55,325 nt of DNA from positions 1 to 55,325 of IMG/VR virus record IMGVR_UViG_3300044606_000259, one strand, 5' to 3'. The position numbers and the translations under genes are program-made. Under the pieces are notes generated by a model. It did no database searches. It was not told the origin of the DNA and worked only from the letters and a program-made list of their open reading frames with translations. Positions 1-55,325 of this stretch are shown piece by piece. Source of the stretch: a virus (Duplodnaviria; Caudoviricetes). Positions within the stretch are counted from its first letter, which is position 1; the number at the start of each line of letters is the position of its first letter.

Positions 1-2616
1 ATGGCAACCGTTTCTGAACAAATTCAGCAGATCTACATCGGCCTGCTGGGTCGCGCCGCTGACCAGGCTGGTCTGGACTACTGGGCCGCTGAGATCAACA
101 GCGGTGCTCTGACCCTTGAGCAGCTCCGCGCCAACATCGTTAACGAGCAGCCGGAATACGCTGCCGGCCAGGGCAGCATGACGCGTGCCCAAGCGGTTGC
201 CGACCTGTACGAGAACCTCTTCAACCGTCAGCCGGAAGCTGCTGGCCTGGAATACTGGGTCAATGGCGGTGGTGCCAGCGTGAATATCGACCAGCTCGTG
301 CTGGCATTGATCGCCGGTGCTTCGGCTGCTGATCAACTGGTCTTGGATAACAAGACCGAAGTGGCTGAGTACTACACCGCCGCCGCTGGCGCTGATTACA
401 CCGCTGACGCTGCAAAGGCTGCGGTTGACAATGTCGATGCGACGCGCGGTTCGGTCGATGCTGCTAAGGTAGCTATCGATTCGGGTACTGTGGCTTCGGG
501 TCAGACTTTCATGCTCACTGTTAGTCAGGACACCCTGACTGGTACTGCCGGCAACGATACCTTCACCGCTGGTGTCGCTGGCGACACCCAGGCCAACCTG
601 GCTGACACGCTGCAGAGCATTGACTCCATCAACGGCGGCGCTGGTACCGACACCCTGAACGTCACTCTGAACGGTGGCGTTGCTGTTACCCCGACGCTGG
701 CTGCTATTGAGAACATCACCCTGCGTTCCACGACCAACGCATCCGAGCTTGACCTGTCTGGCTCTACCGATGTTGCCAAGGTGTCCGTGTCGTCCAGCAC
801 CGCGACTGCCGTCGTGAGCGGTTTGAATGATGTTGCCAGCTTGGAAGTTTCCAGCCAGAGCAAGAACGTGACCTTCTCCGGCTCTACCGCTACTGCCCTG
901 ACTCTGGGTCTGACCGGCGTTGCAGCTACCGCTGACACCACCGTTGATCTGGATGATGCTGCTGCGACCTCGCTGACGCTGAACCTGAGCGGCAACGGCA
1001 CCGGCCTGACCAAGAATGTCCTGACGCTCGACCAGAACGCAGCGACTGCTACCGCTGTTACTGTGAACGTGACGGGCGCTAACTACGTTGATGGCGTTCT
1101 CGCCCTCGACGCAGCCAAGACCCTGAACGTTGCTGGCACGGGTTCCCTGACGGTTGATGGTACCAATACCCTCCTGACCGCTCTGCAAACCCTGAACGTT
1201 ACCGGTGGTGCTTCCGTCGATCTGTCTGACATCGGTACCCTGGGCGCGCTGAAGACTGTTGCTGCTGGCTCGACCACTGGTGACGTTTCCATCATCGTCG
1301 ATGACACCGCGACTGCTTTGGCTACCGGTTCGGGTGACGATGTTGTCGAATACACGGCCGCCATTGCTGCTTCTGCCACGGTTTCCCTTGGCGCTGGTGA
1401 TGACGAGCTGACCGTTACCGACGCTGACAAGACTGCAGTGATCAGCGGTGGTGAAGGTACCGATACGCTGGCTGGCTTGGTTGCTGACATTGCTGCGCTG
1501 ACTGCCGATGCCGACAAGTCGGCTGCGTTTGCCGGTTTCGAAGTGTTGAAGGTTACCGATGCTCTCGGTACTGGCGACAACGTTGATGTCTCCGCGATTG
1601 ACGGTGTGACCAGCTTTGTCGCTGGTGCTGGTGTTACCAGCACTGAAACGGCTACTGTTTCCGGTATTGGTGCTAACGCAACTGTTACGCTGGAAGGCGC
1701 CATTGCCAATGACGGCGACTTGACCGTTACCCTGGCTGACGCAACTGGTAGCGCTGACGTTCTGAACCTGGTGCTGAACAAAGCAGCTCCGGCCGACAAC
1801 GCCAACACGACTGTCGAGTACACCGCAGTGACTATCGGTGTTGCAGCGGCTGGTGTTGAAACGGTGAACCTGACGGCTAACGCCGCTGGTGCTGCTGACG
1901 GCGATATCGACCTGAACAACTACACCGTTACGCTGACTGACACCGCGCTGACCACTCTGAACATCAGCGGTGCTCACAAGGTTACCTTCGCTGCTGACGC
2001 GACGATGGATAAGCTGGTCACCATCGATGCATCCGCCACTACTGGCGGTGTTGATATTGATGTTGATCTGGTCGATACGAAGGCTGTGACGATCACCGGC
2101 GGTTCCGGTGACGACACCATCAAGGGCTCGGACTTCGCTGACACCATCAACGGCGGCGCTGGCAATGACACCATCACCGGTGGTGCCAAGGCTGATGCAC
2201 TGAATGGTGGCGAAGGCAATGATGTGTTCGTGATGGCTGCGACCACCGACTCCACCCTGATCAACCTCGACGTGATCACTGGCTTCGTGGCGAACACCTT
2301 CGGTCAAGGTACCGACGGTGCTGCTACCGATGCTGGCGCTGACATCGCGGACATCGCTGACTGGACGGGTGACGTGATTGATCTGTCTGCTATTGCTGGT
2401 GGCCTGACCAAGATTGCCGTTAGTGTTCAGACCAATGCTTCGGATGCTCAGACCTACCTGCAAAACATCGGTGACTCTACCAACGACACCATCGGCGTTG
2501 CTCTGGACTCCTCCAGCGGCAAGCTGTATATCGACGTCGGTTCCGACGGTACGGTCGACTCGGTGATCCAACTCACCGGCGTGACCACCATCGACGAGGC
2601 TGCCTTCATCATCTAA
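1..2616 (+). CDS. S-layer protein, RsaA/DUF4214-like, with RTX Ca-binding repeats and C-terminal type I secretion signal; probably a host(1-173)/phage(174-871) chimera
   Basis: N-terminal IQQIYIGLLGRAAD..GLDYW and YENLFNRQPEAAGLEYWV motifs; Ala/Thr/Gly/Asp/Val-rich beta-helix-like body; GGxGxD repeats (GGSGDD, GGAGND, GGEGND); ends IQLTGVTTIDEAAFII; no Sec signal; GCT/GGT/GTT/ACT codon bias of highly expressed genes. Confidence 0.9.
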   Translation: MATVSEQIQQIYIGLLGRAADQAGLDYWAAEINSGALTLEQLRANIVNEQPEYAAGQGSMTRAQAVADLYENLFNRQPEAAGLEYWVNGGGASVNIDQLVLALIAGASAADQLVLDNKTEVAEYYTAAAGADYTADAAKAAVDNVDATRGSVDAAKVAIDSGTVASGQTFMLTVSQDTLTGTAGNDTFTAGVAGDTQANLADTLQSIDSINGGAGTDTLNVTLNGGVAVTPTLAAIENITLRSTTNASELDLSGSTDVAKVSVSSSTATAVVSGLNDVASLEVSSQSKNVTFSGSTATALTLGLTGVAATADTTVDLDDAAATSLTLNLSGNGTGLTKNVLTLDQNAATATAVTVNVTGANYVDGVLALDAAKTLNVAGTGSLTVDGTNTLLTALQTLNVTGGASVDLSDIGTLGALKTVAAGSTTGDVSIIVDDTATALATGSGDDVVEYTAAIAASATVSLGAGDDELTVTDADKTAVISGGEGTDTLAGLVADIAALTADADKSAAFAGFEVLKVTDALGTGDNVDVSAIDGVTSFVAGAGVTSTETATVSGIGANATVTLEGAIANDGDLTVTLADATGSADVLNLVLNKAAPADNANTTVEYTAVTIGVAAAGVETVNLTANAAGAADGDIDLNNYTVTLTDTALTTLNISGAHKVTFAADATMDKLVTIDASATTGGVDIDVDLVDTKAVTITGGSGDDTIKGSDFADTINGGAGNDTITGGAKADALNGGEGNDVFVMAATTDSTLINLDVITGFVANTFGQGTDGAATDAGADIADIADWTGDVIDLSAIAGGLTKIAVSVQTNASDAQTYLQNIGDSTNDTIGVALDSSSGKLYIDVGSDGTVDSVIQLTGVTTIDEAAFII
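513..519 (+). repeat. candidate attL core GCTCACT inside the S-layer gene
   Basis: Identical 7-mer at 54764-54770 in the same frame and at the equivalent protein position (TFMLT|VSQDTLTGTAGNDT vs AITLT|IGVDNIVGTSGNDT). Confidence 0.7.
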
Positions 2617-2657
2617 TCTCCCCCGGAGACAAGCACCCGCCCTCGGGTAGGTGCTTG
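2617..2657 (+). other. two RNA hairpins directly after the S-layer stop (possible mRNA 3' stabilisers)
   Basis: TCTCC-ccc-GGAGA and CAAGCACC...GGTGCTTG inverted repeats. Confidence 0.45.
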
Positions 2658-2665
2658 AGGTGATT

Positions 2666-2701
2666 AAAACCCTGTCCTTCGAAAGAAGGGCGGGGTTTTT
2701 T
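2666..2701 (+). terminator. rho-independent terminator of the S-layer gene
   Basis: AAAACCCTGTCCTTC-GAAA-GAAGGGCGGGGTTTT stem with GNRA loop followed by T run. Confidence 0.85.
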
Positions 2702-2712
2702 CCATAAGGGCC

Positions 2713-3414
2713 TTGAGAATGCGCAGGGTCTTAATGGAAGAAAGCAGTCAAGGAGCCGTCGCCATCGCAAAACCAGATCCCGCCCTGGTCGCCATCCTGG
2801 TTAACCGGGAGCACAGCCGCCTATCGAGCCAGGTCAAGACGCTGGAAAAGGTGCTGCACGCGCCGTTTTCCGACAAGGAGCACCAGCGCCTGCTCACCCT
2901 GGTGGCCAACTGGCGTGCCCTGCTGGCGTTTGACGATGGTGCCCCGAGGCTGGCCGATGCGCTGGAGAGCTTCGCGGCTGCCTACCGGCAGCGCTCACCC
3001 GACCAGGAGCGACTCCACGACGAGGTGGTCTTCCAGGCCGGTGTCTACCGGATGGGCCACTGGGGGCTTGTCAAGCACTTCATCCCCTGCGTCACCGACT
3101 GCCTGGACAACTTCGGCAGTGTTCTGCCCAAGTACCGCGATGCCTTCAAGCGCCGATACGAGGCTGACGGCAATCTGAGCGTGGAAGCGCAGTCGCAGCT
3201 ACTCAAGGCGCAGTACGCCTTGATCCCCAACCGCCGAGATCCCTACCGGCACGAAGAGATGAAGCGCCGAGGGCTGGTCAGCGCCGACGGCATCGTGCCG
3301 ATGGGCGTGAAGGAAGCACTGGCGCTGATCGAACGGGACGAGGCGCAGGCCGCGCAACCAGCCAAGCGTGGCGTCGTAGCGTGGGTGGCGGATCGGTTTC
3401 GGCGCAAAGAGTGA
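2713..3414 (+). CDS. hypothetical protein (start may be ATG 2734)
   Basis: 233-aa ORF with normal coding bias; no motif recognised. Confidence 0.7.
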   Translation: MRMRRVLMEESSQGAVAIAKPDPALVAILVNREHSRLSSQVKTLEKVLHAPFSDKEHQRLLTLVANWRALLAFDDGAPRLADALESFAAAYRQRSPDQERLHDEVVFQAGVYRMGHWGLVKHFIPCVTDCLDNFGSVLPKYRDAFKRRYEADGNLSVEAQSQLLKAQYALIPNRRDPYRHEEMKRRGLVSADGIVPMGVKEALALIERDEAQAAQPAKRGVVAWVADRFRRKE

Positions 3415-3429
3415 GCGCGCAGGGGGGCT

Positions 3430-4038
3430 ATGGAAAGCGAACAAATGGATTCAGGGGGTGCGGCCTCAAAATGGGAACAAGCTCTTCAACGGTTAGAAAT
3501 AACAGCGGAGCAGCGTCTCGTCATCGATAACGCCAAGGCAAAGCAGGCAGACGATTGGTCGCTGGATGAGGCTGATCTGATGATTCGCGTCAGTCGTGAA
3601 GCGCGTCGTCTTCAGGCCGTTGATGAATACAAGACTCTACCTCGAGATGACCGTGAGCGGGAGCACCAGCGAGTTTGGCAATTGATTGGCGGATATACCG
3701 CCTTCATAGCTGCGGCCTGCCTTGCAGTAATCAGCGCATCAAAATCTGAGGGCAGTTACGCATTCGCATTCTCGTTCTGGGTAATCTCTCTGCCGTTTCT
3801 GTGCGGCTCAATGCTGCTCGATTACCACGTTCGAGTGAGGCAGGCGAGGCTTAACAGCAAAGTCCGGAGCTTCTTGCTGACAGTCGGAGTTCTATCAAGC
3901 CACTTGGGCACAGCAGGGATCGTGAGCACATATTCGTGGGTTGCAGCGGTTGTTTATGGGCTGTGCCCAGTGTTGGTCGGCCTATATCTGCACGAAACCA
4001 TTGCGCTTGGAGGCAGAGAAAACTTCGAGGATCTTTAA
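3430..4038 (+). CDS. hypothetical membrane protein (~4 TM helices)
   Basis: Hydrophilic N-terminus followed by four hydrophobic stretches; lower GC than the phage core. Confidence 0.7.
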   Translation: MESEQMDSGGAASKWEQALQRLEITAEQRLVIDNAKAKQADDWSLDEADLMIRVSREARRLQAVDEYKTLPRDDREREHQRVWQLIGGYTAFIAAACLAVISASKSEGSYAFAFSFWVISLPFLCGSMLLDYHVRVRQARLNSKVRSFLLTVGVLSSHLGTAGIVSTYSWVAAVVYGLCPVLVGLYLHETIALGGRENFEDL

Positions 4039-4039
4039 A

Positions 4040-4945
4040 TTGAGTGACAAGCTGTACATCATCGGCAACGGCTTCGATCTCCATCACGGGATGCCGACCA
4101 AGTTCTCAGATTTCCGAACTTTCGCTCGTAAGACTGCCCCTGAGCTGCATCGTGCCGTTGATGACTATCTGCCGGTGAACAATGACTGGTCTGATCTTGA
4201 GGATGCACTCGCCGCGCTGGATGTAGACACCGTCATCGAGGACCTGATCGGCTTCATGCCATCCTACGCTGCAGATGACTGGCGCGACTCCGGTCACCAT
4301 GACTTTCAGTTTGAAGTGGATCGCGTGGTCCGCCAGCTTTCGATGGAGCTGAGGTCAGTTTTTGCCCGATGGGTCCGGCAGGTCGAAGTCCCGAATCTTG
4401 CCAATGCGCCTGGAGTCCATCGCCTGACGAGCATTTACCCCAGTGCATCATTCTTGACGTTCAACTACACGCCCACCTTGGCTGATCTATACGGCGTGCC
4501 GTTGGAGCGCACGCTTCATATCCATGGCGCGTCTTCTGATGATGATCAGGAACTGATCCTGGGGCACGGCTGGAATCCGGCGATGCGCAAATCGCTGAAT
4601 GACCGTCCAGATATCGAGGATCTGGACACCCGAATGATCGAAGCGCACCAGATCCTGGATCAGTATTTCAGCGCCACATTCAAGCCGTCACAACAGTTGA
4701 TCGCGCAGCACCAGGAATTCTTCAAGGCATTGGACGCGGTCACACAGGTCACCGTCCTTGGGCACTCCCTTTCGGATGTGGACGCAGAGTATTTTCGGGC
4801 GCTGCTTGCGGTGCCAGCCGTGGCCTCGGCCACCTGGGCGGTGGCTTGCCGCCACAGCGACGATTCTGTTGAAAAAACTCAGCGGCTCGCTAACTTGGGC
4901 TTGCCGGCAAGTCAGATCAGGGCGGTTGCATGGGCCACACTTTGA
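4040..4945 (+). CDS. AbiH-family abortive infection protein
   Basis: LYIIGNGFDLHHG, FLTFNYT, LHIHG, LILGHG and VLGHSLSDVD motifs typical of the AbiH/SIR2-like family; TTG start 1 nt after the upstream stop. Confidence 0.8.
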   Translation: MSDKLYIIGNGFDLHHGMPTKFSDFRTFARKTAPELHRAVDDYLPVNNDWSDLEDALAALDVDTVIEDLIGFMPSYAADDWRDSGHHDFQFEVDRVVRQLSMELRSVFARWVRQVEVPNLANAPGVHRLTSIYPSASFLTFNYTPTLADLYGVPLERTLHIHGASSDDDQELILGHGWNPAMRKSLNDRPDIEDLDTRMIEAHQILDQYFSATFKPSQQLIAQHQEFFKALDAVTQVTVLGHSLSDVDAEYFRALLAVPAVASATWAVACRHSDDSVEKTQRLANLGLPASQIRAVAWATL

Positions 4946-4946
4946 T

Positions 4947-5028
4947 TGACCGTTAACAAAACAGTTGACGCCGTATCTTCACTTCCCCTACAATCGCCGT
5001 TAATCAATCACGCAACGGTTAACGGTCA
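4947..5028 (+). promoter_or_regulatory. sigma70-like promoter with flanking inverted operator-like repeats
   Basis: TTGACG(4965-70)-N18-TACAAT(4989-94); perfect 11-bp IR TGACCGTTAAC (4947-57) / GTTAACGGTCA (5018-28); partial CCGTTAA at 4997. Confidence 0.65.
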
Positions 5029-5297
5029 TGGGCTTCGGCACCTTCATTCGAGAAAAACGCGAGCAGGCCAATGTGCCGATGAACGAGTTCGCCCGCAGCT
5101 TAGGCATCTCGCCGGCCTACTGGTCACGCATCGAGCGTGAGCTGGAGAAAGCGCCCAAGGATGAGCTGATCACCAAGGCCGCTGAGGCGTTGGGGCTCAA
5201 CCCCGACGAGGCCTACATCGAGGCCAGCCGCTTGCCCCCCGATATGCAGAAGGACGTCAGCACCGTCGTTCGCCTGTACCGCAAAAACTTGGGTTAA
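5028..5297 (+). CDS. XRE-family HTH transcriptional regulator (putative repressor)
   Basis: FGTFIREKRE..MNEFARSLGISPAYWSRIER HTH_3 pattern. Confidence 0.85.
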   Translation: MGFGTFIREKREQANVPMNEFARSLGISPAYWSRIERELEKAPKDELITKAAEALGLNPDEAYIEASRLPPDMQKDVSTVVRLYRKNLG

Positions 5298-5308
5298 GGC
5301 GGTGACGC

Positions 5309-6139
5309 ATGCCAGCGCTTTCCCTGCGGTATGACTATTGCTCCCTTCACAAGCCCCGCTACCTGAACAAGCCGGCCATCGAGATGGTGGCCCGAGAGGC
5401 CAGAGCACAGCTTTTGTCTGCTGGCACCGATGCGCTGACACTAGAGAAACTGGCCGCCATCTCCGACCTGACCATCAACGGCCTGCCGTACCAGTTGTGG
5501 GTCAGCCTGGAGCACCCGGTCACCGATGAATCAGGCCAGCCGGTGCTGGGCCTGTGCGAGTTCGACCCGGACTGCGGCGAGGACGCCGTGTCGGTGCTGG
5601 TTTCACCGGTCGGTGAGCAACTCACCCCCGAGCTGGCGCTCTCCACCTTCGCTCACGAACTGGGCCACGCCATCTTTGACGCTCCTGCCTGGCTGATCGC
5701 TGCCAAGCAAGGGCCAGGCTTGTTCGACGAACCGGACACCAGCCAACGTCGCGCCTATCGCACCGCCACACCGGATGCCGAGCACCTGGGCGCCACGACC
5801 CTGCCGCAAAACACCGCACTCGAAAAAGAGATCCGCATCGCCGAGTTCCGTGCCAACGAGTTCATGGGCTCGCTGCTGGTGCCGCGTGACCGGCTGGTCG
5901 AACTGGCTGTGGCCCGTGCGTCAGACTTCGATGTCGGCATTGAACGCGACGGCGGCCTGTCCGACGAACTCCACGCCGCCACACCGCGCTTGGTCGAGCG
6001 AGGCACCTTCGGCTTCGTTGGTATGGAAAACCTTCAGCGCGAACTGGCTGCGACCTTCGGCGTGAACCCCAAGTTCATCCGCGTGCGGATGGAGCGTTAC
6101 GGGCTGCTGCCCGCTCTGCCTGGTAGAGGACAAAGATGA
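5309..6139 (+). CDS. ImmA/IrrE-family zinc metallopeptidase
   Basis: FAHELGH (HExxH) and EFRANEFMGSLLVP motifs; directly follows the XRE gene. Confidence 0.85.
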   Translation: MPALSLRYDYCSLHKPRYLNKPAIEMVAREARAQLLSAGTDALTLEKLAAISDLTINGLPYQLWVSLEHPVTDESGQPVLGLCEFDPDCGEDAVSVLVSPVGEQLTPELALSTFAHELGHAIFDAPAWLIAAKQGPGLFDEPDTSQRRAYRTATPDAEHLGATTLPQNTALEKEIRIAEFRANEFMGSLLVPRDRLVELAVARASDFDVGIERDGGLSDELHAATPRLVERGTFGFVGMENLQRELAATFGVNPKFIRVRMERYGLLPALPGRGQR

Positions 6140-6161
6140 GTTACTGATCGGATGCACAGCT

Positions 6162-6186
6162 CGCCGGCCTGGTGCCGGCGTTTTTT
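6162..6186 (+). terminator. rho-independent terminator
   Basis: CGCCGGC-ctggt-GCCGGCG-TTTTTT. Confidence 0.7.
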
Positions 6187-6250
6187 GAAGCCTGCGATTA
6201 ACAAATCGCGCAATCGTATAACAACCCGCCACTCGTAAAGGAGAACAAGA

Positions 6251-7651
6251 ATGGCAGAAGTCGACGTGATGGAAAACCGCGAGTCAGACCCGACGGCCCT
6301 CGCCGCAGAGGCGACTGCTACGGGTGGCGACAAACTGCGTAAGCCACGGGCCACTGATGGTGGGCCGGAGATCCTGCCCGATATGGGCCACTATGTGACC
6401 CTGGTGCGCAAGATCCGGCATCGGCCGCTGGTGGCACAGTGGCTGCAGCATCTGCACCCGGAGGATCTGCCCGCCATCGAGTGGAACCACAAGGTCTGCG
6501 CCAGCTACAAGCAGAGCCTCTTCACTGTGGTCGCGGGTCTGTCCGGTGCTATCCGTCAGCGGGTGGAGGAAGCCGCTCAGCGCATCTTGCTGCTGTCGGA
6601 TGACTATGGGTGCGAGGCCGTCAAATCGCTGTTGAGTGAAGACAACGAGACTGAGCAGCAGGCGGTTGCAGCCGCCGGCGACAAGTACGACCGTGCGCTC
6701 TACCTGTACCTGTGTCGGCTGGCGGACGACGGTGACCGTCGCTTCGAGCAGGCCGAAACCACCCGCCAGCAGAACAGGCAGTGGAAGTCTGAAACCTACG
6801 CCAGCCACTTCCGAGGGCCGAAGGCGGTGGATATCGCACTGGACGACACGCTCAAGGACAAACTCAAGACGGCGATTGCCGCCATCTACCCGCAGGCACC
6901 GTTGCAAGATGTGGTCATCGAGCATTTCCAGCGGCGCGATCTGACCCAGGACGAGGACCGTGGCGGTGAGGATGACTCGGCCCCAGTTTGGCTGCACACC
7001 ATCGTGGTCGGCTTCAATGGCAAGGAAACCCACTGGGACAAGATCGTCGATGGCGAGGTGACCACGCGGCACGACCAGGCCCTGCAGCGCATCACCTTCT
7101 CGTATGAGCCGAGCACCGGAGCGCTGTCGGTGTTCTGCGACGACCGCAATGCCCGTCAGGAACTCGCCAAAGCCCTGCGCGATGTGGTGCTGGCCAGCGA
7201 CACTGAAATCGCCGAAATGCCGCTGCGCGAGTTCAGTCTCAACGCCTTTGGCAGCCCTGAGGTGTTCAACCTGCTCCAAACCGAGCACGGCGATGGCATC
7301 GAGCGCATCAGCATCAACCAGATCAAGGTAGCCAAGTGCTTCGATCAATTGGGTGCGGATGGTGGCACCCATCATATTTCGAGTGGCTTGACCATCCATC
7401 GCGACCGGCGCGACCGCCGTGACGTCTATGTCGTGGCCAGAGAAGACCACCGTCTGGCGGATTTGAGCGGCTACGAATTGGTGCAGGTCAAGCTGGTGCT
7501 GCGCATGGCCAAGCAAAAGGAGCGCCGTGCCCACAACATCGTGGTGCAGATCACCGCGCCCAACGGCCTGAACGACAACGCCAAGACCGAGGACGAGCGC
7601 CAGCTGGTGATGCGCCTCTTGAAACGCTGGCAGATTGTCACCGAGTTTTGA
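6251..7651 (+). CDS. hypothetical protein (466 aa)
   Basis: Long ORF with strong SD (AAGGAG); no motif recognised. Confidence 0.8.
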   Translation: MAEVDVMENRESDPTALAAEATATGGDKLRKPRATDGGPEILPDMGHYVTLVRKIRHRPLVAQWLQHLHPEDLPAIEWNHKVCASYKQSLFTVVAGLSGAIRQRVEEAAQRILLLSDDYGCEAVKSLLSEDNETEQQAVAAAGDKYDRALYLYLCRLADDGDRRFEQAETTRQQNRQWKSETYASHFRGPKAVDIALDDTLKDKLKTAIAAIYPQAPLQDVVIEHFQRRDLTQDEDRGGEDDSAPVWLHTIVVGFNGKETHWDKIVDGEVTTRHDQALQRITFSYEPSTGALSVFCDDRNARQELAKALRDVVLASDTEIAEMPLREFSLNAFGSPEVFNLLQTEHGDGIERISINQIKVAKCFDQLGADGGTHHISSGLTIHRDRRDRRDVYVVAREDHRLADLSGYELVQVKLVLRMAKQKERRAHNIVVQITAPNGLNDNAKTEDERQLVMRLLKRWQIVTEF

Positions 7652-7662
7652 GGAGGCCGCCG

Positions 7663-8592
7663 ATGCTGACAGAAACGCTGCAACGGCTGGAGCGGCTGGA
7701 CACCATGGACAGCACGTTGTTCGGCAGCGAGCTACGGAGCTTTGGTCGCGTACTGCTGGACAAGGGTTGGATCGCCGCCATTGGTTACTTCAGCCACATC
7801 GATGTCGAGGTGATGGACGACATCTTCGAGGAGGTCGAGGTCACGGTCGACGAAGCCGCTGGCCGTTACACCTACCCACACCCATTCCGGCGCACGGTGA
7901 TCCTGAGCCGCCCGTTGTCCGACGTCACCCGCTACCGCTTCCAGCGCGAGCCCTTCTTCGACCACCTCGCCACGCTGCTGGGCATCGAGCCTCGGTTTGC
8001 CGGACGCCGGCGTTGCCTGGTCGAGCATCACCTCTGGTATCTCGGTGAGATTCGCGTCGGCCACAGCCACGCCTTTGCACCAATTTTCTTCGGGCGACGG
8101 CTCCAGGATGCGTCAGCTGAGCAGATCACCTCTGCCTTGTCCGACCCGGCGTTCGGCAGCGGCGGTGTGGTGCTGGCACTGACCGATCCGAAGATCGGCT
8201 TGCCCAACGGCCACCAGCTGCGCACCGTCAAGGATCTGCTGGTCGTGGAGGACGGCGAGGAGCAGTTCGATCTGCCGGTGCTGGAGCGGATTTTGGTCGG
8301 GCTGCCTGCAGACCCGGCCGACGAGCCTGAAGAGTGGTTCGATGCGAAGACCGGAGGTTTGCGATTGCAGCACATGCCAGAAGTGGCCTATTTCTCTGGC
8401 ATTCAATTGCGGATCATGGAACTCTTCTGGAAATCGCGCGATGGCGCTCCCCTGTCATGGGCGGAGGTCAAGCGCCGGACATTCACGGCCAGCAAGGGGA
8501 TTGATGACGCATTCAAAGGTCGGGATTGGTCGCAGTGGATCGAGCGCGTTGGCCACGGCAAACTCAGGCTGCGCACATCCCGCTCGGCGTAG
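7663..8592 (+). CDS. hypothetical protein, possible C-terminal winged-helix DNA-binding domain
   Basis: SD GAGGAGG; C-terminus FSGIQLRIMELFW..PLSWAEV..WIERVGHGKLRL resembles a wHTH. Confidence 0.7.
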   Translation: MLTETLQRLERLDTMDSTLFGSELRSFGRVLLDKGWIAAIGYFSHIDVEVMDDIFEEVEVTVDEAAGRYTYPHPFRRTVILSRPLSDVTRYRFQREPFFDHLATLLGIEPRFAGRRRCLVEHHLWYLGEIRVGHSHAFAPIFFGRRLQDASAEQITSALSDPAFGSGGVVLALTDPKIGLPNGHQLRTVKDLLVVEDGEEQFDLPVLERILVGLPADPADEPEEWFDAKTGGLRLQHMPEVAYFSGIQLRIMELFWKSRDGAPLSWAEVKRRTFTASKGIDDAFKGRDWSQWIERVGHGKLRLRTSRSA

Positions 8593-8761
8593 TGCTATGC
8601 CCGGCTTGGGCTCATCGGCCGATCTGACGACTCAGGCGAGTTGAGATCGATGGTCGCCATCCGCCTCAGTGACGGATGGCGCAGGGGCAAGCGTTCCCAA
8701 GGCCCGCCATACGCTTTGAATGGGCGTAAATGGGAGCCTAGTTTGCTCTGAATTGAACGCG

Positions 8762-9427: not shown

Positions 9428-9626
9428 TGAAATTCTCCAAATTCTGCGCGGGACGTTGAGCGATTACGCATCCAGCACAGTGGGAATCCCAATGGTCGGA
9501 TGAAAACTTCAGGGTGCAACGAGATGCCCTTTTTTGAGTCGCTCACAACTCGGGCGGGTGCCTGATCGAAATTCTACGCCAGGTGGTGAAAGGATTCAAA
9601 GGTGCTGGGCAACCTGCCCACTGATG

Positions 9627-9670
9627 TTTCCGGAAAGTTTTCAGGAAATCGTCCGGACACCTTCCGGAAA
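9627..9670. repeat. four phased copies of a (T)TCCGGA(A) palindromic motif upstream of the replication/recombination operon
   Basis: tttccggaaa 9627, tttcaggaaa 9639, cgtccggaca 9650, cttccggaaa 9661 (11-12 bp period). Confidence 0.75.
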
Positions 9671-9716
9671 TGGATGCGAAGAATGGGTAACTCCTTAACC
9701 ACCAAGGAGTTGCGAA

Positions 9717-11131: not shown

Positions 11132-11137
11132 CCCGCC

Positions 11138-44489: not shown

Positions 44490-44511
44490 TGAACGATAAG
44501 GAGAACATCGA

Positions 44512-44903: not shown

Positions 44904-44912
44904 GGTTTCTTC

Positions 44913-47717: not shown

Positions 47718-47738
47718 TTTTCTGTTTGGAGGTGTGCC

Positions 47739-48137
47739 ATGGCCGAACGTGTGATGTTGGGCCTAGGCGAGTTTCGTTTTGAAATCGCCACGCTCGCTTA
47801 CCAAAAATTCTCACTCAACCAGTCCTGGCGCTGGCAAGAGCAGGCACGTATCAACCGAGATCCCGCCTTGCAGTTCGTTGGACGCAACGTTGGCGAGATC
47901 GAACTCGACGGCGTGATTTACCCGAGCTTCAAAGGCGGCCTGGTGCAGATCGAAGCCATGAGATCCCTTGCTGACGCCGGCAAGCCGCTGCAACTGGTCG
48001 ATGGTCTGGGTCGTATCTGGGGTGCCTGGGCGATCACGGAGATCGGGGACACCCGAACCGTGTTTGCCGATGACGGCCAGCCCAGGAAGCTGGAGTTCCG
48101 CATCAAGCTCAAGGCCTACGGGGAGGATCAGCGATGA
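47739..48137 (+). CDS. tail protein (P2 gpU family)
   Basis: MLGLGEFRF; PALQFVG; LVDG.G..WG.W. Confidence 0.88.
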   Translation: MAERVMLGLGEFRFEIATLAYQKFSLNQSWRWQEQARINRDPALQFVGRNVGEIELDGVIYPSFKGGLVQIEAMRSLADAGKPLQLVDGLGRIWGAWAITEIGDTRTVFADDGQPRKLEFRIKLKAYGEDQR

Positions 48138-48352
48138 GCCGCCCCCTCTTCAAGCGCGTGATCACCCGGGATGGGGATGTGCTCGATGACCTGATCTGGC
48201 AGCACTACGGGAGAGGGGATGTACTGGCTTCCGTGCTTGAGGCCAATCCCGCTCTGGCGCAGTTGCCCCCGGTCCTTACCGCTGGCCTGGTGATCGAGCT
48301 GCCTGAGCTGCCGTTGCCGGCAGAAGCGCCGGTGATCCGGCTGTGGTCATGA
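48134..48352 (+). CDS. tail protein X (LysM-like)
   Basis: GDVLD.L.W.HYG..VLEANP.LA..IRLW. Confidence 0.9.
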   Translation: MSRPLFKRVITRDGDVLDDLIWQHYGRGDVLASVLEANPALAQLPPVLTAGLVIELPELPLPAEAPVIRLWS

Positions 48353-48362
48353 GGGGGCATCG

Positions 48363-49448
48363 ATGCAACCGATCTTCCGTCTCTACGCCGACAGCCAAGA
48401 GATCACCGCTGCCATTCGCGACCGGCTGATCGAGCTGGTGGTCACCGACGAAGCCGGCATCCAGTCCGACGAGCTGAAACTGACCCTCGATGATCGTCGC
48501 CGTGAGGATAGCGCGATCGCGCAGCTGCCGCGCATCGGCACGGTGCTGACCGTGTTCATGGGCTACGCCGAAACCCGGCTGGTATCGATGGGGCGCTTCA
48601 TTGTCGACGAGGTCGAGATGCGCTCGCCACCGGCCACGCTGACGGTCTCGGCCAAGGCCGCCGATATGGTCGGGCCGTTTCGCAGCCCCAAGACCCGCTC
48701 CTGGGATGCGACCACCCTGGGCCAGCTGGTCGAGGCCATTGCTGCCGAGCATCGGTACGAGGCCAAGATCGATCCCGAACTCGGCGCCATTGCCATCCCG
48801 CATCTGGACCAGACCGAGGAATCGGACATGGCGCTGCTCACGCGCCTGGCCGCCAAGCACGATGCCGTGGCCAAAGCCGTGGCGGGGTTTCTCGTGCTGG
48901 GCAAGCAAGGGGCGATCAAGACCGTCACCGGCCAGGTGATGCCGACGATCTCTCTCAATGCCAATGAGCTGGCCGAATGGCGCTACCGACACTCGGCGCG
49001 CAAACCCGGCGGGAGTGGCTCCACCAGTGACCGCGACACTTCGTCACCACCGACGACAGCAACCGGTGGCACACGCGCCTACTGGTGGGATTTCGAGAAG
49101 GGCGAGCGCCGGGAAGTGACAACCGGCCAGCCACCGTTCGAGGAAATCCGCTACGTCCACGCCACGGAAGCCGAGGCCAGGGCGGCAGCGGCCACGCGCA
49201 AGAACACCGGCGAACGGGGACAGGGTGAACTGTCGTTCAGCCTGCCTGGCGATCCGAGGCTGGCTGCCGAAGGCCGGCTGTCGATCTCCCCGCGCCCGGG
49301 CATACCCACCGACTGGCGCATCAAGCGCGTCGAGCACCGCCTCGGCACCCAGGGCTACACCACTCAGGTCGAGTGCGAGCGCTTCACGGAATCGCCCGTG
49401 CCAGTGAATGACGCGCCGACTACAGCCACCACCGAATCCAACAGATAA
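48363..49448 (+). CDS. baseplate hub / late control protein D
   Basis: TDEAG..SD.L.L.LDD; HLDQT.ESD..LLTRLA. Confidence 0.9.
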   Translation: MQPIFRLYADSQEITAAIRDRLIELVVTDEAGIQSDELKLTLDDRRREDSAIAQLPRIGTVLTVFMGYAETRLVSMGRFIVDEVEMRSPPATLTVSAKAADMVGPFRSPKTRSWDATTLGQLVEAIAAEHRYEAKIDPELGAIAIPHLDQTEESDMALLTRLAAKHDAVAKAVAGFLVLGKQGAIKTVTGQVMPTISLNANELAEWRYRHSARKPGGSGSTSDRDTSSPPTTATGGTRAYWWDFEKGERREVTTGQPPFEEIRYVHATEAEARAAAATRKNTGERGQGELSFSLPGDPRLAAEGRLSISPRPGIPTDWRIKRVEHRLGTQGYTTQVECERFTESPVPVNDAPTTATTESNR

Positions 49449-49461
49449 GGAGACAAGCACT

Positions 49462-49794
49462 GTGACCCCTGACAAAGATCCTTCGACCTACGGCCTGATC
49501 ACCTACCTGTGGGTGACCGGGCTGGCCGCCTGGGGTGGCTTGGTCAATTTCTACCGCAAGGTGAAGTCCGGCGAGACCCGGGCTTTCAATGTGGTGGAGC
49601 TCATTGGCGAGATCGCCACCTCGGCCTTCGCCGGCCTCATCACCTTCTGGCTGTGCGAGGCCGCGCAGTTCAACCCTCTGGTCACTGCCGCCCTGGTCGG
49701 CATCTCTGGCCACATGGGCAGCCAGGCCATCTATCAACTGGAGCGCTGGGCACAAAAGCGCCTGGGCACACCCGTAGAAAGGGAGCGGCCATGA
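49462..49794 (+). CDS. phage holin
   Basis: SD AAGGAG, GTG start; three hydrophobic segments; precedes the endolysin. Confidence 0.75.
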   Translation: MTPDKDPSTYGLITYLWVTGLAAWGGLVNFYRKVKSGETRAFNVVELIGEIATSAFAGLITFWLCEAAQFNPLVTAALVGISGHMGSQAIYQLERWAQKRLGTPVERERP

Positions 49795-50309
49795 ACGCCA
49801 TCGATACGATCCTCGACGACATCCTTCGCCGGGAAGGCGGCTACGTGAATCACCCCGCCGACCGGGGTGGGCCAACGAACTTCGGCATCACCGCGCAGAC
49901 GCTGGGTAGCTGGCGCAAGCTGGACCGTCCGGCCTCGGCCGCTGAGGTGCAAGCGCTGACGGAAACGGAGGCCCGCGCCATCTACCGCCAGCAGTACATC
50001 ACTGGCCCTGGCTTCGAGGCCATGACCCATCCGGCACTGTTGCATCTGCTGGTGGACGCCGGCGTGCATTCAGGGCCGAAGCGGGCGGTGCAGTGGTTGC
50101 AGGCTGCGCTCGGTGTCACGGCCGATGGCGTGATCGGTCCCAAGACCCGCGCAGCACTCGCTACCGCCGACCAAGGTGTGCTCTATGGCAAAGTGCTCGG
50201 ACAGCGCCTGCGCCATCTCGGAAGGCTGATCACCAACGATCCCAGGCAGTCGGCGTTCGCCGCTGGCTGGATGAACCGGATGGCCGAATTCGTGGAGGGC
50301 ACGGCATGA
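49791..50309 (+). CDS. endolysin, glycoside hydrolase family 108 with PG-binding domain
   Basis: EGGYVNHPADRGGPTNFGIT; DGVIGPKT; GWMNR. Confidence 0.92.
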   Translation: MNAIDTILDDILRREGGYVNHPADRGGPTNFGITAQTLGSWRKLDRPASAAEVQALTETEARAIYRQQYITGPGFEAMTHPALLHLLVDAGVHSGPKRAVQWLQAALGVTADGVIGPKTRAALATADQGVLYGKVLGQRLRHLGRLITNDPRQSAFAAGWMNRMAEFVEGTA

Positions 50310-50734
50310 CCCCATTGCTGACCACTTTGGCGCCAGGCCTGCTCGAAGCCGGTAGCCGCCTGATCGACCGCCTGGTGCCGGACCCCGCCGAGCGGGAGAA
50401 AGCCAAGCTCGCGCTGCTGCAGGCAGAAGGTCAGTTGGCACTGCAGGAGATGCAGACGAGTCTCTCGGCGATCCTGGCCGAGGCCAACTCGCCGGACCCC
50501 TGGACCAGCCGGGCACGCCCGACCTTCCTGTACGTGATCTACGGCGTGATCCTGCTGTGCGTGATGGGCGCCATCATCGGCATCTGGTGGCCAACGCACG
50601 TTTTCCAGGCAGCGGAGAACCTGAACAAACTGCTGGGTGCGGTGCCCGAAAGCCTGTGGTGGCTCTTTGGTGCCGGCTACCTTGGCTACACCGGGGCGCG
50701 CAGCTTCGACAAGTGGCGTGGGCCGGTACGCTGA
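50306..50734 (+). CDS. holin-like membrane protein (3TM/GTA-holin-like)
   Basis: IDRLVPDP..REKAKL; W.SRARP; GYLGY..ARS.DK. Confidence 0.7.
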   Translation: MTPLLTTLAPGLLEAGSRLIDRLVPDPAEREKAKLALLQAEGQLALQEMQTSLSAILAEANSPDPWTSRARPTFLYVIYGVILLCVMGAIIGIWWPTHVFQAAENLNKLLGAVPESLWWLFGAGYLGYTGARSFDKWRGPVR

Positions 50735-50768
50735 CCGGTGCTGCCCGACACGACAACCTGACACGACG

Positions 50769-50816
50769 ATCCCCCGATCTCACTGCCTTCACGGGTGGTG
50801 GGGTCGGGGGATTTTT
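50769..50816 (+). terminator. terminator ending the late operon
   Basis: ATCCCCCGATCTCACTGCC..GGTGGTGGGGTCGGGGGAT stem followed by T run. Confidence 0.75.
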
Positions 50817-50838
50817 GCGTTTGGTGGTGAGTAGACAA

Positions 50839-51453
50839 TTACGCCGATTGCTCGGTACGGGCTTTGAGGATGCTTTCGATCAAGCGATACACAGTCGTCT
50901 GCCCGAGGCTTCTTGGCCAGTCGGAGCACGGCGGGTGATCCCGTTTCTTTGCGCGGCGAATGGCATCGTCGATTTGCGACTGACTGATTTTCCGCGTGTC
51001 GATGCCCTTGTCGTAGTCCGGAATCCAGCGTTTGAGTCGATCTGTGCAGTCGCGCGATGAGGTGACCCCCGTGCCATCCTCAAAGTGCAGCAGTAACCAG
51101 TATTCGAACTTGGGGTTGCTGAGTGCGAAGCCGTAGTTCTCTTGCTGCAATGACCATTGGTGCAGTTGCGTCAGCTGCTCATCGGTCCACTGATCCTTGT
51201 CCACCACCAGCCACGCTTCGTCAGACGACTTGAGTCCTTCGCTCTCGAGGTGGTCAGTCATTCGCTTCAATACCTGCGGCGGCGAGCTGTCGTGTTTGCC
51301 TTTTAGGCAGCTCACCCGCACGATGGAGGTGTCGTCGGCGAAGATGCCGAAATAAAGCGGCTCGGTTTTGATGCCTTCGGCCGCGATGAGGAACAGCTTC
51401 TTGTAGCGCCGCTCTCCCAGCGGTCGCTGGAATTTTCGTCGCTGCGCTGCCAC
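50839..51453 (-). CDS. RloB-family (AbiLii-like) protein
   Basis: [29 protein letters not shown]. Confidence 0.85.
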
Positions 51454-52796
51454 TACTGCACCTCCTCTGCGGCTGAGTTCTCGTCGCTCTCAGCAAAATT
51501 GCTGCTGAGCAAAATGCGAGGTATGCCGCCAAGTCGGCCCTGTAAATAGCTCTTGCGGATGTCCTTGTCGTACCGAACATCTTTGTACTCAGCGAAGGAA
51601 ACCAGCGTCGATGCACCTGTGGGTTTGCGCTCAGCCACCCACATCTCATCACGGCGCAGCAACTGCTGGTCCATCAGCAAGACATCGTGGGTGGTCAGCA
51701 GAAGCTGCGAGCGGGTGTCGGCAGAGCAACTGGCCAGGTACGCTTCCAGCAGGCGGCGTGTCAGCAAGGTGTGAAGGCTCCGATCCACCTCATCGATTAC
51801 GAACACTTTCTTTGATCCGGGAGCCGCGAGTTCCAGGAATGCGGGCAGCAGATCAATGACACGCTGCGACCCATCGGACTCTTGCCGGATCTCGAATTTT
51901 GCTTCTGTGCCGTCAGTCTTTGGGTGGTAAGTCACCAGCTTCTTGGCGATCAGATCACCGTTCTTGCGCGTGAAGACGAAGCGCTCGTTCTTATCCGACA
52001 TCAGGCGAATCGTCATGCCTTCCTTGACGTCCTCCTGAAGCATCATCTTCATGGGTTCAGGCAGGGGAATATTCTCGAAGGGAATATCTTCGCCACCCAG
52101 ATGTGCAATGCCTGTGTCGAGCTGCGGCAGCATCTCGTTCATCGTGGCATAGAGCGGGTGACCGTCATCGAGGAACTGCTCAAAAGGCTCGAAGCGCGAG
52201 TCCGGTGCAACCAAGTCCAGCGTGTCTTTGAACCAGTCATAGACAGGGCGGAAGTTCTCCACCTTCTGGGAAACCGAGTTCGTCAGGAACAGCTGGTTGT
52301 CGCGCGTGCCCTTGAACGCAAACTGCAGGAATTGATCCTTTTTCAGCGCCTCGTCGAAGTCGATTTTGTTGCCTCGACGCGAGTAGAGCACCCGCTCGCT
52401 GGTGCTGGTGATGACGACCAGCTTCTCGTCCAGGACGGCCTTGCGGTTCACCGAGAAGGCGAACTCGTAGATCGTCTCGTCAATCAGCAGCTCAAAAGCA
52501 AAGCGCGAGGGCTTGTCGATGCTGGCGTTGTCCAGACGAAAGCCTTCCACGGCCAAATGGCTATCGGGCTGGGTGCCCTTGACCACCAGCATCTTGGCGA
52601 AGTTCAGCGCTTTGAAGAAATTGGTCTTGCCAGAAGCATTGCCACCGTAGATGGCGGCAACCGGCAATACTCGGGTGTTGTACTTCCCGAGCTTGGGCAA
52701 TCTGTCTCCGTGCTGGCGCTCCCGACTGGCAACCATCGAGAAGGTGACGGAGTCGCGGAAAGACATCCAGTTTTCGACAGAGAAGCTAATGATCAT
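51453..52796 (-). CDS. AAA_21 ATPase (RloA/AbiLi-like)
   Basis: [57 protein letters not shown]. Confidence 0.88.
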
Positions 52797-52897: not shown

Positions 52898-54106
52898 TCA
52901 GGTCAGGGTTGCCGTGTGTACCTGATTCGCTGTCACCACCGGCCGCCGCCTCACGACATTCCCCACCACGTTGACCGCTTCCAGCATCGCCTGCGGCGAC
53001 AGGTGCGCATAGCGCATCGTCACCTTCGGATCGTGGTGACCCAGAAGCTTTTGCACCTCGTACAGCGACCGCCCTGCATTGACCAGGAAACTGGCGTAGC
53101 TGTGGCGCAGGTCGTGCAGCCGCACTTCCTCCAGCCCGACCTTTTTGCGGATCGAGTCCCAGGCGTAGAAGATCGACACCGGCGGCTTCTTGGTCTTGGG
53201 GTTGAAGAACACCCAGGGGATGTCCTCCTGCCGGGGCAGCGCCAGCAGCAATTCCACTGCTGCATCCGACAGGGGAATATGGCGCGGCTTCTTCGACTTC
53301 GACCGCGCCGCGGGCACCGTCAGCATCCGCCGGTTGAAATCGATCTCGTCCCAACGGGCATCCAGAATTTCCCGCTTGCGGGCGCCGGTGTAGAGCAGCA
53401 GCCGGATCACCTGGCCGACCTGCACATTGCGGTTGGTGTCCAACTCGTCAAACAGCCGCTGCACCTCGTCGGTCGTCAGGTAGCGCTCCCGCGCACCGTG
53501 GTCCTCGAAGGGCTCAACGCCATCGCAAGGATTGCTCTTGGGCGGCAGGATTTCCCAGCGGATCGCGCAGTTGTAGATGAACTTCATCAGCACGATCATC
53601 CGGTTGCAGGTGCCGGCCGCGTAGCCCTTCTCGAACACCGCGTGGTGGAAGGCCACTACATCGGAGCGGGTGATCCGGTTCATCCGAAACTCGGCAAACA
53701 CTGGCAGCAGGTGATTGCGCAGCATCGTCTCGTCCGTCTCCCAGCTGCGCTTGCGGGTCTTGGCGTAGGGCAGATACCGTTCGGCCACGAAATCCCCGAA
53801 GGTCGGCACATCCTTGAAGCGGTGGCTCTCCACTTTCGGGTCGCCGCCCTCGGTCACCATCTGCTTCATCTTGTGCGCCTTGGCCCGGGCGTCCGATACC
53901 GAAATCTCATCAGAGCGGCCAATCCGGTTCAACCGAACCTTGCTGGCCGCATCGCGGTAGCGGAAGTAAAAGGTGGCCCCGCCGCTGGCCCGGTGCTCCA
54001 GCAGGAAGCCTTTGATCTCCGTATCGAAGTAACTCACAGCCCCGGAGGCAGGCTCGCGACCTGGCAGTGTGGCCAGGAATTCGGTTGTCAACGCTTGTGC
54101 AGGCAT
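52898..54106 (-). CDS. int: tyrosine integrase with N-terminal arm-binding domain
   Basis: YFD....GF...GG..F.FRYR arm domain; catalytic TGARKRE, K, HDLRH, LLGH, RY. Confidence 0.95.
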   Translation of the reverse strand: MPAQALTTEFLATLPGREPASGAVSYFDTEIKGFLLEHRASGGATFYFRYRDAASKVRLNRIGRSDEISVSDARAKAHKMKQMVTEGGDPKVESHRFKDVPTFGDFVAERYLPYAKTRKRSWETDETMLRNHLLPVFAEFRMNRITRSDVVAFHHAVFEKGYAAGTCNRMIVLMKFIYNCAIRWEILPPKSNPCDGVEPFEDHGARERYLTTDEVQRLFDELDTNRNVQVGQVIRLLLYTGARKREILDARWDEIDFNRRMLTVPAARSKSKKPRHIPLSDAAVELLLALPRQEDIPWVFFNPKTKKPPVSIFYAWDSIRKKVGLEEVRLHDLRHSYASFLVNAGRSLYEVQKLLGHHDPKVTMRYAHLSPQAMLEAVNVVGNVVRRRPVVTANQVHTATLT

Positions 54107-54216
54107 CGTCGTGCTCCTCTATCTGTTGAGGGTCATGCTACGATACAATGCGCCGTAAAGGACATAAAAAGCGTCTAATAGACGAGAATATTTACCTACC
54201 CAAAAAGGAGTCGACC

Positions 54217-54468
54217 ATGATCGACGGAAGACAGATCCGCGCCGCACGCGCGATGCTGGGTTGGAGCCGGGACGACCTGCTCAAGGCCTCGGGCATCTCG
54301 ATGTCAGCGCTGCTGCGCATGGAAGGGGCACTGGCCGACAGCCGTGGCTCCACGCTCAACAAGGTGGCCAAGGCCCTGACCCTGGCCGGCATCGAATTCG
54401 TCACCCGCGATGACGGGGCGATAGGCGTGATCCTCAAGGCACAAAACCCGCCTCAACCGGCACAATGA
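54217..54468 (+). CDS. XRE-family HTH regulator divergent from the integrase
   Basis: QIRAARAMLGWS..DL..SGIS...L.R.E; AGIEF; SD AAGGAG. Confidence 0.85.
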   Translation: MIDGRQIRAARAMLGWSRDDLLKASGISMSALLRMEGALADSRGSTLNKVAKALTLAGIEFVTRDDGAIGVILKAQNPPQPAQ

Positions 54469-54497
54469 GCACAGCATCCCGAGCGCCCCAAAAGGCA

Positions 54498-54534
54498 CAA
54501 AGGCCACCTGATGAGACACATTGGGTGGCCTTTG
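54498..54534 (+). terminator. hairpin after the XRE gene
   Basis: CAAAGGCCACC-N15-GGTGGCCTTTG. Confidence 0.45.
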
Positions 54535-54763
54535 CACTAGATGGCTTCGGTTGGTAGGTAGTTGGTACGTCGGATTGGCTGTAAATTGCGTCTATATAGA
54601 TAGGTGACACGGCTAAGTCTTTGAAAAGACAAAGAAAATATCTGATCAGACTGAAAATATGCCTTTTGCGGTAGGAAAGTGGTCGGAAGTGGGCGCTTCG
54701 AGGGCTTCAAAGCGCGCGTAAGTCTTTGACTTATAAAGAGATTGCAGACTAGCTGGCTATTAC

Positions 54764-54770
54764 GCTCACT
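54764..54770 (+). repeat. candidate attR core GCTCACT
   Basis: Marks the switch from AT-rich non-coding DNA to S-layer-like coding sequence; matches 513-519 in frame. Confidence 0.7.
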
Positions 54771-55325
54771 ATTGGTGTGGATAACATCGTCGGCACCTCC
54801 GGCAATGACACTATCAACGGCAACTACGACCCGGTTGAGGCATTGCACCAATTCTCCGGCCTGGATGTCATCGACGGCGGTGATGGCACCGACACCCTGG
54901 CCCTGACGGATTCTGTTGGCGGCAATCTCGACCTCGGCGTCGCCACCGTCAAGAACGTTGAAGTGCTCAACGTCCGTTCAGTTGGCGCCATCGTTGGCAA
55001 CGGCGCCACTGCAAACGACGTCGATCTGACCACCTTCGCTTCCGGCCTGACGTCCGCCACCATCGACGTGGCTCAAGCCGCTGCCCTGACCGTGACGGCT
55101 GCCACCACCACCGCGCTGAACGTTTCCAGCAACAACGATGTGACCATCGTTGGTGCGGGCGGTGCTCTTGTGATCGATACCGATGGCGACGTGGTTGTGG
55201 GTAACAATGGCGCTGCGACTGCCGCCGACATCAACGCCCTGACCTCCGTCAGTGTGACCCAGGTGCTGGCTTCCGCCAAGAAGGCCGACATCACCGACAA
55301 CAGCGGCGCTGCCGGTGCTATGTAA
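54765..55325 (+). pseudogene. displaced, headless 3' part of an S-layer gene, ending at an early TAA
   Basis: LTIGVDNIVGTSGNDTING..DVIDGGDGTDTL..VKNVEVLNVRS is colinear with residues 172+ of ORF 1-2616; in-frame TAG at 54750; no DUF4214-type head and no clear SD. Confidence 0.8.

Follow-up and report, generated by a model that had tools for sequence, protein, structure and literature searches.

Integration of a temperate phage at the domain hinge of an S-layer gene probably fuses the host anchor to a phage-supplied lattice domain

Phages and genomic islands that integrate into tRNA genes, like phage 21 and e14 in the icd gene of Escherichia coli, carry the 3' end of their target gene as a near copy, and the function of the target is kept. 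Surface variation from a single expression site is a hallmark of the sap genes of Campylobacter fetus. Surface variation by site-specific recombination in the 5' part of the gene, again at a single expression site, is described for the Vpma proteins and the Xer1 recombinase of Mycoplasma agalactiae (PMC5634654), and lysogenic serotype conversion of Shigella flexneri by O-antigen-modifying phages has been described as well (PMC3636060). Here, we analyzed the 55,325-base virus record IMGVR_UViG_3300044606_000259 (Caudoviricetes), which in its entirety is referred to below as the window. It holds a temperate prophage bounded by two segments of surface-layer (S-layer) genes. Our preferred reading, to which we assign a probability of roughly 0.87, is that integration of this phage at the hinge of the host S-layer gene, as proposed in an initial annotation of the record, fuses the host anchor to a lattice domain supplied by the phage.

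The plus strand of the window contains only three copies of the heptamer GCTCACT (513-519, 38548 and 54764-54770). At the left end, an open reading frame (ORF) of 871 amino acids (1-2616) reads ...GQTF-M-L-T-VSQDTLTGTAGNDTF, with VSQD... following M-L-T, and the core corresponds to the G of ATG followed by CTC ACT. At the right end, ACG CTC ACT (54762-54770) opens a frame reading ...T-L-T-IGVDNIVGTSGNDTING after an in-frame TAG (54750-54752), and this headless frame, T-L-T-IGVDNIVGTSGNDT, is preceded by a 295-base non-coding stretch. Both outer cores therefore share their frame and their protein position, x-Leu-Thr, between anchor and lattice, at a core-to-core distance of 54,251 bases. The initial annotation had pointed out the common heptamer, its frame and position, the size of the interval and the upstream stop; all of these can be read directly from the window, although the positions it gave for the heptamer were off by one or two bases. 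Over 194 aligned positions, the right-hand fragment is 26% identical to, and colinear with, the left protein (residues 172-364; BLASTP, E 7e-13), in agreement with the earlier description of two colinear but divergent 3' parts. No direct repeat longer than 15 nt joins the two ends, the repeats found being located inside genes. In the left gene, CTC is a minority codon for leucine (11 of 77 codons) and ACT accounts for 28 of 121 threonine codons. Since the same heptamer, frame and hinge recur at both ends of five further prophages, as detailed below, the repeat is more than chance. The features of the two junctions, as assigned here, are the following.

1..512, plus strand: host part of the hybrid S-layer gene, an N-terminal anchor of 171 codons that ends ...GQTF-M (Pfam DUF4214, E 1.4e-13); the promoter lies outside the record.
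513..519, plus strand: core GCTCACT of the left attachment site (attL), third base of codon 171 plus the Leu-Thr codons; sole plus-strand copy in the left 38 kb.
520..2616, plus strand: startless, promoterless lattice cassette borne by the element, RsaA-like with RTX repeats, 698 codons plus stop; assigned from the RsaA match, the RTX Pfam match and the boundaries.
52898..54106, minus strand: tyrosine integrase with an arm-binding domain (Pfam and PHROG 1).
54148..54468, plus strand: small XRE-type helix-turn-helix (HTH) gene, divergent from the integrase gene (weak Pfam matches to HTH_31/HTH_3, below cutoff; PHROG transcriptional regulator, E 3e-6).
54469..54763, plus strand: phage arm (P arm) of the right attachment site (attR), non-coding, with the in-frame TAG at 54750-54752; kept across the family up to the core at 21 distinct loci.
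54764..54770, plus strand: attR core GCTCACT, read from the sequence.
54771..55325, plus strand: headless displaced host lattice allele, 187 codons counted from 54762, with its TAA at the last base of the record.

Relatives of the integrase were found at 45 loci in IMG/VR and at 77 loci in GTDB genomes. At 23 of them (21 distinct), the integrase-side sequence is kept up to ...TATTA(C/T)-GCTCACT and then diverges at once: over the distinct loci, pairwise identity averages 82% across the 60 nt before the core vs 47% across the 60 nt after it. Beyond the core, the sequence continues in frame as x-LT-.G.D...G.D. into a headless lattice ORF that differs at each of the 21 distinct loci and that measures 671-1082 amino acids where the locus is long enough. 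This comparison places a true phage/host boundary at the right junction. Furthermore, the arrangement follows the integrase. Where the integrase shares 56% identity or more with that of the window, 14 of the 24 assessable genomic loci have a core and a headless lattice beside it; where it shares 34% or less, none of 21 loci does. A complete S-layer gene stands beside the integrase at two of the 24 (L158 and L159); there, 370-1400 bases separate the integrase (60-61% identical to the window's) from the start of an anchor-bearing S-layer gene, a pattern that may reflect a different target or a different stage.

Integrases 93-98% identical to the window's were found in Allochromatium humboldtianum, Extensimonas perlucida, Stutzerimonas kunmingensis, Thauera terpenica, Yanghanlia caeni, Tepidimonas thermarum and several metagenome-assembled genomes. 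These loci (L132-L147) span Chromatiales, Pseudomonadales, several Burkholderiales and Rhodocyclales, an unusually wide range for one attachment module. The best match among 50,697 cultured-phage records reached 32% identity; therefore, no cultured phage offers a phage attachment site (attP) for comparison. We also observed a 15-kb viral contig (L032) with two integrase copies, in which the lattice after the first junction ends at 544 codons and tail genes of a second phage copy come next, as in a rearranged tandem.

The far end of the prophage reads anchor-TF-x-LT(GCTCACT)-lattice, in the same frame, in all six prophages whose left end was reached. These are the window itself (core at 513), a 59-kb IMG/VR contig (G001), Stutzerimonas kunmingensis (G012), an Oxalobacteraceae metagenome-assembled genome (G015), a complete 4.17-Mb genome (G193) and Extensimonas perlucida (G011). 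The prophage of G193 measures ~60 kb, with cores at 7911 and 68238, of which the right one is GCTCACC, a single-base difference. Four virus records (G002-G005) and a contig end (G013) stop before any core, and were counted as not reached rather than as misses. The anchors left of the core are unrelated among the six prophages (44% identity). Between phages from hosts of different classes, homology extends leftwards as far as the stop codon that closes the left S-layer gene: G193 matches window 2621-8297 at 88%, and G012 matches 2613-3404 and 4942-8471 at 83%, the segment 3405-4941 being missing there. Because recombination is conservative and the sole core in the left 38 kb lies at 513, attL would be ordered host-core-phage. 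The cassette, the one part that differs, is bracketed by this core and by phage-conserved DNA, and the 698-codon lattice (520-2616) would therefore lie inside the prophage, which agrees with the earlier claim that the phage supplies a different lattice of ~700 amino acids. A further locus points the same way. In G006, the lattice to the left of the phage lacks a head as well and has another integrase ahead of it, a layout that matches the expected product of a second integration into the attL hinge. In G012, genes for Wzt, a methyltransferase and GT4 glycosyltransferases lie upstream of the hybrid gene, and their resemblance to a host O-antigen-type locus marks the anchor side as host.

A competing explanation is that the whole left S-layer gene (1-2616) belongs to the host, with the prophage starting at ~2617-2712 and the headless piece on the right representing an unrelated silent or decayed paralogue. 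The end of inter-phage homology at 2613 or 2621 fits this explanation, as the cassette itself is not kept between phages, and so does our finding of no other element with cassette 520-2616. Furthermore, an 89-base stretch after the gene (the hairpin at window 2613-2701) recurs at 95% identity behind the S-layer gene of G080 (L243 11425-11513), a complete genome from the family of Thauera terpenica without such a prophage. However, a conservative recombinase leaves its core at both ends, and there is no GCTCAC at 2600-2720, only the left-hand core at 513. The head of the right allele would also need to have been lost in six independent prophages, each with its anchor joined at the core, and the headless left lattice of G006, preceded by an integrase, is hard to accommodate. 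No relative examined carries a whole gene equivalent to 1-2616 directly followed by the fragment, the arrangement that the initial annotation had named as evidence against integration at the hinge. We therefore regard host ownership of the whole left gene as very improbable.

Copies of the hairpin stretch, 83-95% identical, directly follow S-layer genes in G012, G193 and G080. In G080, a partial second copy (L243 13491-13543) flanks an IS200/RAYT-like transposase gene (L243 11776-12876). The hairpin after the cassette may thus be an element resembling repetitive extragenic palindromes rather than a plain terminator.

The S-layer gene itself is modular exactly at the hinge. Residues 213-869 of the left ORF align with chains of RsaA (6p5t_A, E 1.3e-9; 5n97_A, E 4.7e-9), and an RTX repeat is matched in Pfam at residues 709-742. 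The anchor is a DUF4214 domain that gave no alignment with the N-terminal domain of RsaA, the PDB alignments beginning at residue 213, and the name 'S-layer protein' of some relatives is a JGI annotation only. The displaced fragment is 74% identical to the start of headless proteins of 763-781 amino acids and 60-68% identical to the corresponding part of full-length S-layer proteins. Four relatives (P0002, P0003, P0007 and P0010, 762-781 amino acids) start at the hinge. In P0009, the N-terminal 171 residues are those of the window, joined through GQTF-T-LT to a fragment-type lattice; P0006 has a similar build, with an anchor 95% like the window's. Three unrelated N-terminal domains precede a fragment-type lattice in P0004, P0005 and P0008, joined at G(Q/E)TF-x-LT. 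In the 120 proteins most closely related to the left cassette, many different anchors precede the hinge motif, which lies at about residue 150-210, and at least 13 of these proteins start at the motif or immediately behind it. The hinge and a downstream TG.D..TGT.GNDT motif are conserved.

Searches of metagenome contigs for close relatives of the fragment returned only distant S-layer genes, at most 54% identical, and a lattice-B alignment run against genome contigs and viral contigs gave pattern matches, none of which was confirmed. Twenty sequencing runs from nine studies share 0.19-0.25 of the sampled words of window 1-3000; none shares half, and nothing was concluded from them.

Such modularity could also be produced by antigenic-variation cassettes of the host, exchanged by homologous recombination or by a host recombinase as in Campylobacter fetus sap, the phage merely lying among them. 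The abundance of headless S-layer ORFs and the conservation of the hinge and of the downstream motif are both compatible with this idea. Nevertheless, the headless alleles inspected border on an integrase arm to the exact base, and the pattern vanishes beside distant integrases. The cassettes stand in direct rather than inverted order, and the anchors are not repeated, so that no long homology 5' of the hinge is available for exchange. Host-driven variation is for these reasons as unlikely, in our judgment, as host ownership of the left gene. An assembly or provirus-calling artefact, with a contig made chimeric at a repeated S-layer motif, is less credible still: the record does begin at the ATG of the 871-codon ORF and end at the TAA of a short ORF, suggesting trimming at gene borders, and S-layer motifs are repetitive, but the same layout appears in independent assemblies, including the complete genome G193 and isolate drafts, and an assembler would not be misled by so short a shared core.

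Two genomes contain apparent second copies. In G193, a second hybrid gene was rejected as a duplication, as it lies in a 50-kb terminal overlap of the record that is 99.76% identical (C1:4118000-4168158 vs 4291-54417, L241-L248) and resembles an untrimmed circular-assembly overlap. The hybrid gene is open over 989 codons in one copy and breaks 375 codons past the hinge in the other. In G011, prophage and displaced lattice are found on two scaffolds (C1:1-57659 and C49:29309-~94350) with identical junctions, either a real duplication or an assembly duplicate.

Several observations weigh against integration-driven fusion at the hinge. Neither an excised circle (attP) nor an exact empty site (attB) for the window's phage and its host was seen. 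Phage carriage of the cassette is deduced from boundaries and not from a virion genome; no second copy of 520-2616 was present in viral contigs, the closest protein relative (97%, partial) coming from a 3.6-kb contig. Lattices found at attL and attR form no separate groups, with 30-50% identity all round, and the identical core in the window is only 7 bases. Eight of the 24 close-integrase loci show neither a headless lattice nor a complete S-layer gene, though some may be too short, with the junction ~670 or ~1960 bases from the integrase. At two loci, L026 (GCTCACT) and L135 of Thioalkalicoccus limnaeus (GCACACT), the arm is followed by non-S-layer DNA; these could be secondary sites, an attP devoid of cassette, or rearrangements. 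Finally, the displaced allele of the window is cut at 187 codons, and excision from this host would give no full gene.

This last point modifies two claims of the initial annotation. Deleting the interval does create the predicted seamless join, yet the rebuilt gene is not whole in this record, and the exchange of ~80% of the S-layer protein holds for the incoming part (698 of 871 codons) but not for the outgoing one. The right-hand ORF stops at TAA 55323-55325, where nine relatives run ~580 residues further; its frame ends ...GAAGAM-stop at the place where they read GA(I/V)G(S/A)(K/T)L (window 55300-55325). A point change, an insertion or an element beyond the record end are all conceivable as the cause of the break. 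Since the displaced allele is truncated, the lysogen represented by the window may depend on the phage cassette. At other loci, the displaced allele mostly keeps its full open frame.

Under integration at the hinge, the tyrosine integrase would recombine at the 7-base GCTCACT that codes for the Leu-Thr hinge between anchor and lattice. In the free phage, attP would have the integrase/XRE arm on one side and the startless, promoterless lattice cassette on the other. After integration, attL would place the host promoter and anchor (1-512) in frame with the phage lattice (520-2616), and attR would leave the host's own lattice headless behind phage DNA. If the hybrid gene is expressed and its product assembled, the lysogen would show a different lattice on an unchanged anchor, possibly with a benefit such as the exclusion of S-layer-binding phages, and excision would bring back the old gene where the displaced allele is intact. 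The anatomy of the locus, its boundaries, its recurrence and the association of integrase with hinge are observed directly, and the crossover chemistry is postulated.

Integrases of a second type, 43-48% identical to the window's and with 64% identity between two of them, adjoin ...TCC-GCTCACT-ACAGGT... in G006 and G009, where lattices of 1055-1372 amino acids follow the core. Tandem integrase-core-lattice units occur in three records (G006, G009 and G012). In G009, the order is phage, integrase, core, lattice, methyltransferase and glycosyltransferases, then, further on, a second integrase, core, lattice and methyltransferase. Behind the displaced lattice of G012 come a 13-kb island, a second-type integrase, GCTCACC and a third lattice of 1142 codons. 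This third, innermost cassette (G012:C26:54583-58008, L250/L251) is shifted by one base relative to the frame of its core, GCTCACC being followed by CGGGGT..., and simple excision could therefore not re-express it. Methyltransferase, TPR, glycosyltransferase or UDP-sugar genes accompany the cassettes of several elements. In several unrelated elements (L029, L129, L066, L210 and L212), the lattice cassette is followed by a small class I methyltransferase (start M.S.LHVGCG..KDRTT), often together with TPR, glycosyltransferase or UDP-sugar genes, which may be modification cargo matched to the cassette.

In our preferred reading, the docking site of the window's phage also serves related integrases, borne by other phages and by islands of 10-15 kb, and successive integrations therefore heap silent cassettes downstream of one expression site. 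We lean, though not by much, towards a broader model in which the hinge GCTCACT of RsaA-like S-layer genes acts as a shared docking site throughout Beta- and Gammaproteobacteria. Unrelated elements, 60-kb myovirus prophages as well as the 10-15 kb islands, would compete for this site, each with a startless cassette and often with matching methylation or glycosylation genes. The last arrival would set the surface, and the older cassettes would form a silent stack restorable by excision. Mobile elements would then drive surface variation at a single expression site, and expression of a phage gene would be conditional on integration itself.

A candidate empty site is found in G080, whose intact S-layer gene of 942 amino acids has the core GCTCACT at the hinge GETF-K-LT and an anchor 78% identical in nucleotides to the window's; its closest integrase, 27% identical, is 400 kb away. 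G080 was rejected as the exact empty site, the flanks of the S-layer genes of G080 and G193 not being homologous. Among S-layer loci obtained by searching the family of Thauera terpenica, the core is present in four of five distinct hinge-bearing genes.

The remainder of the window is that of a temperate myovirus-type prophage with AcaML1-like head and contractile-tail genes, and contains the following features.

2617..2712, plus strand: hairpin/terminator stretch after the cassette, a GC-rich inverted repeat followed by a T run; similar stretches lie beside other cassettes.
2713..4945, plus strand: cargo beside the cassette, namely an ORF of unknown function (2713-3414), a membrane-protein-like ORF (3430-4038) and an AbiH-family ORF (3941-4945; Pfam AbiH, E 5e-66).
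4950..52796, no single strand: prophage body, assigned from Pfam, nucleotide identity to AcaML1 and synteny with G001-G005 and G193.
5028-5297, in the prophage body: HTH repressor-like gene (Pfam).
5309-6139, in the prophage body: M78-like gene (Pfam).
49509-50309, in the prophage body: GH108 lysin (Pfam).
51453-52796, minus strand: AAA_21 ATPase (Pfam).

The prophage body also encodes an AAA_24 replication gene and P2 gpU-like and gpD-like tail genes, and window 4950-12000 is kept in further proviruses. Acidithiobacillus phage AcaML1 (JX507079) shares 80% nucleotide identity across 73% of window 25000-45000, over genes for terminase, portal, sheath and baseplate. The integrase, a member of PHROG 1, has the Pfam domains Phage_integrase (PF00589, E 1.9e-30), Arm-DNA-bind_3 (PF13356, E 1.2e-11) and SAM-like (PF14659, E 3.4e-6), and the neighboring XRE-type gene is a possible regulator or directionality factor. 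No tRNA gene was found in the window. The segment 3405-4941, with the membrane-protein-like ORF and the AbiH-family gene, is present in G193 and missing from the otherwise colinear Stutzerimonas prophage; it has the appearance of a defence moron that was inserted next to the cassette.

S-layers form the outermost coat of the cell and commonly serve as phage receptors. If our interpretation is correct, a phage would rewrite the exposed domain by integrating, and lysogenic conversion and superinfection exclusion would have a new route. Three observations would find an explanation in this: the modular S-layer genes, with identical anchors on lattices only 26-60% alike, the many headless S-layer ORFs in these genomes, and a rare-codon hinge kept at the DNA level. 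It would also offer a natural integrase system for in-frame domain swapping with a 7-base target, open to study in cultured non-pathogenic isolates of Extensimonas perlucida, Stutzerimonas kunmingensis, Allochromatium humboldtianum and Yanghanlia caeni. A full-text literature search retrieved no description of an integration-driven S-layer domain swap. One paper (PMC10763512) was considered as a prior description and set aside, as the S-layer locus that it mentions is unrelated to its prophage.

Set against described systems, the left protein resembles Caulobacter crescentus RsaA (PDB 6p5t, 5n97, 5n8p) in its aligned lattice (213-869), in its RTX repeats near the C-terminus and in its two-part build of anchor plus lattice, and differs from it in its DUF4214 anchor. 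AcaML1 shares the structural module (73% of 20 kb at 80% nucleotide identity) but not the attachment module, which must differ since no close integrase exists among the cultured-phage records (best 32%). As with the Shigella conversion phages, a prophage would alter the outermost surface, with the converting genes beside the attachment site; those phages express complete genes from the prophage, whereas the headless fragment here would be expressible only once fused. With Vpma/Xer1 and sap, the locus shares one promoter and N-terminal part, alternative C-terminal parts, a short recombination site and nearby silent cassettes. Those systems are chromosomal, use a resident recombinase and work mostly by inversion. 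The layout of an invertible or shufflon-type system was not encountered here: all cassettes are in direct order, each carried by a mobile element beside that element's own integrase.

A further parallel is the 3'-end replacement practiced by elements in tRNA genes and icd. In both cases, the crossover lies inside a gene, the element brings the downstream part, the gene is whole in the lysogen (here, an 871-codon hybrid ORF open across attL) and the original 3' part is stranded behind the prophage. Unlike a near copy, the 698-codon domain is only 26% identical to the part that it displaces, so that the product changes, and the target is the domain hinge of a surface protein. The proposed mechanism thus combines two known things, replacement of the 3' end of a target gene and lysogenic conversion of the surface. 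It differs from described systems in the in-frame fusion of a large divergent domain at a hinge, in a phage sequence that stays silent until integration, and in the sharing of one site by unrelated elements that stack upon it.

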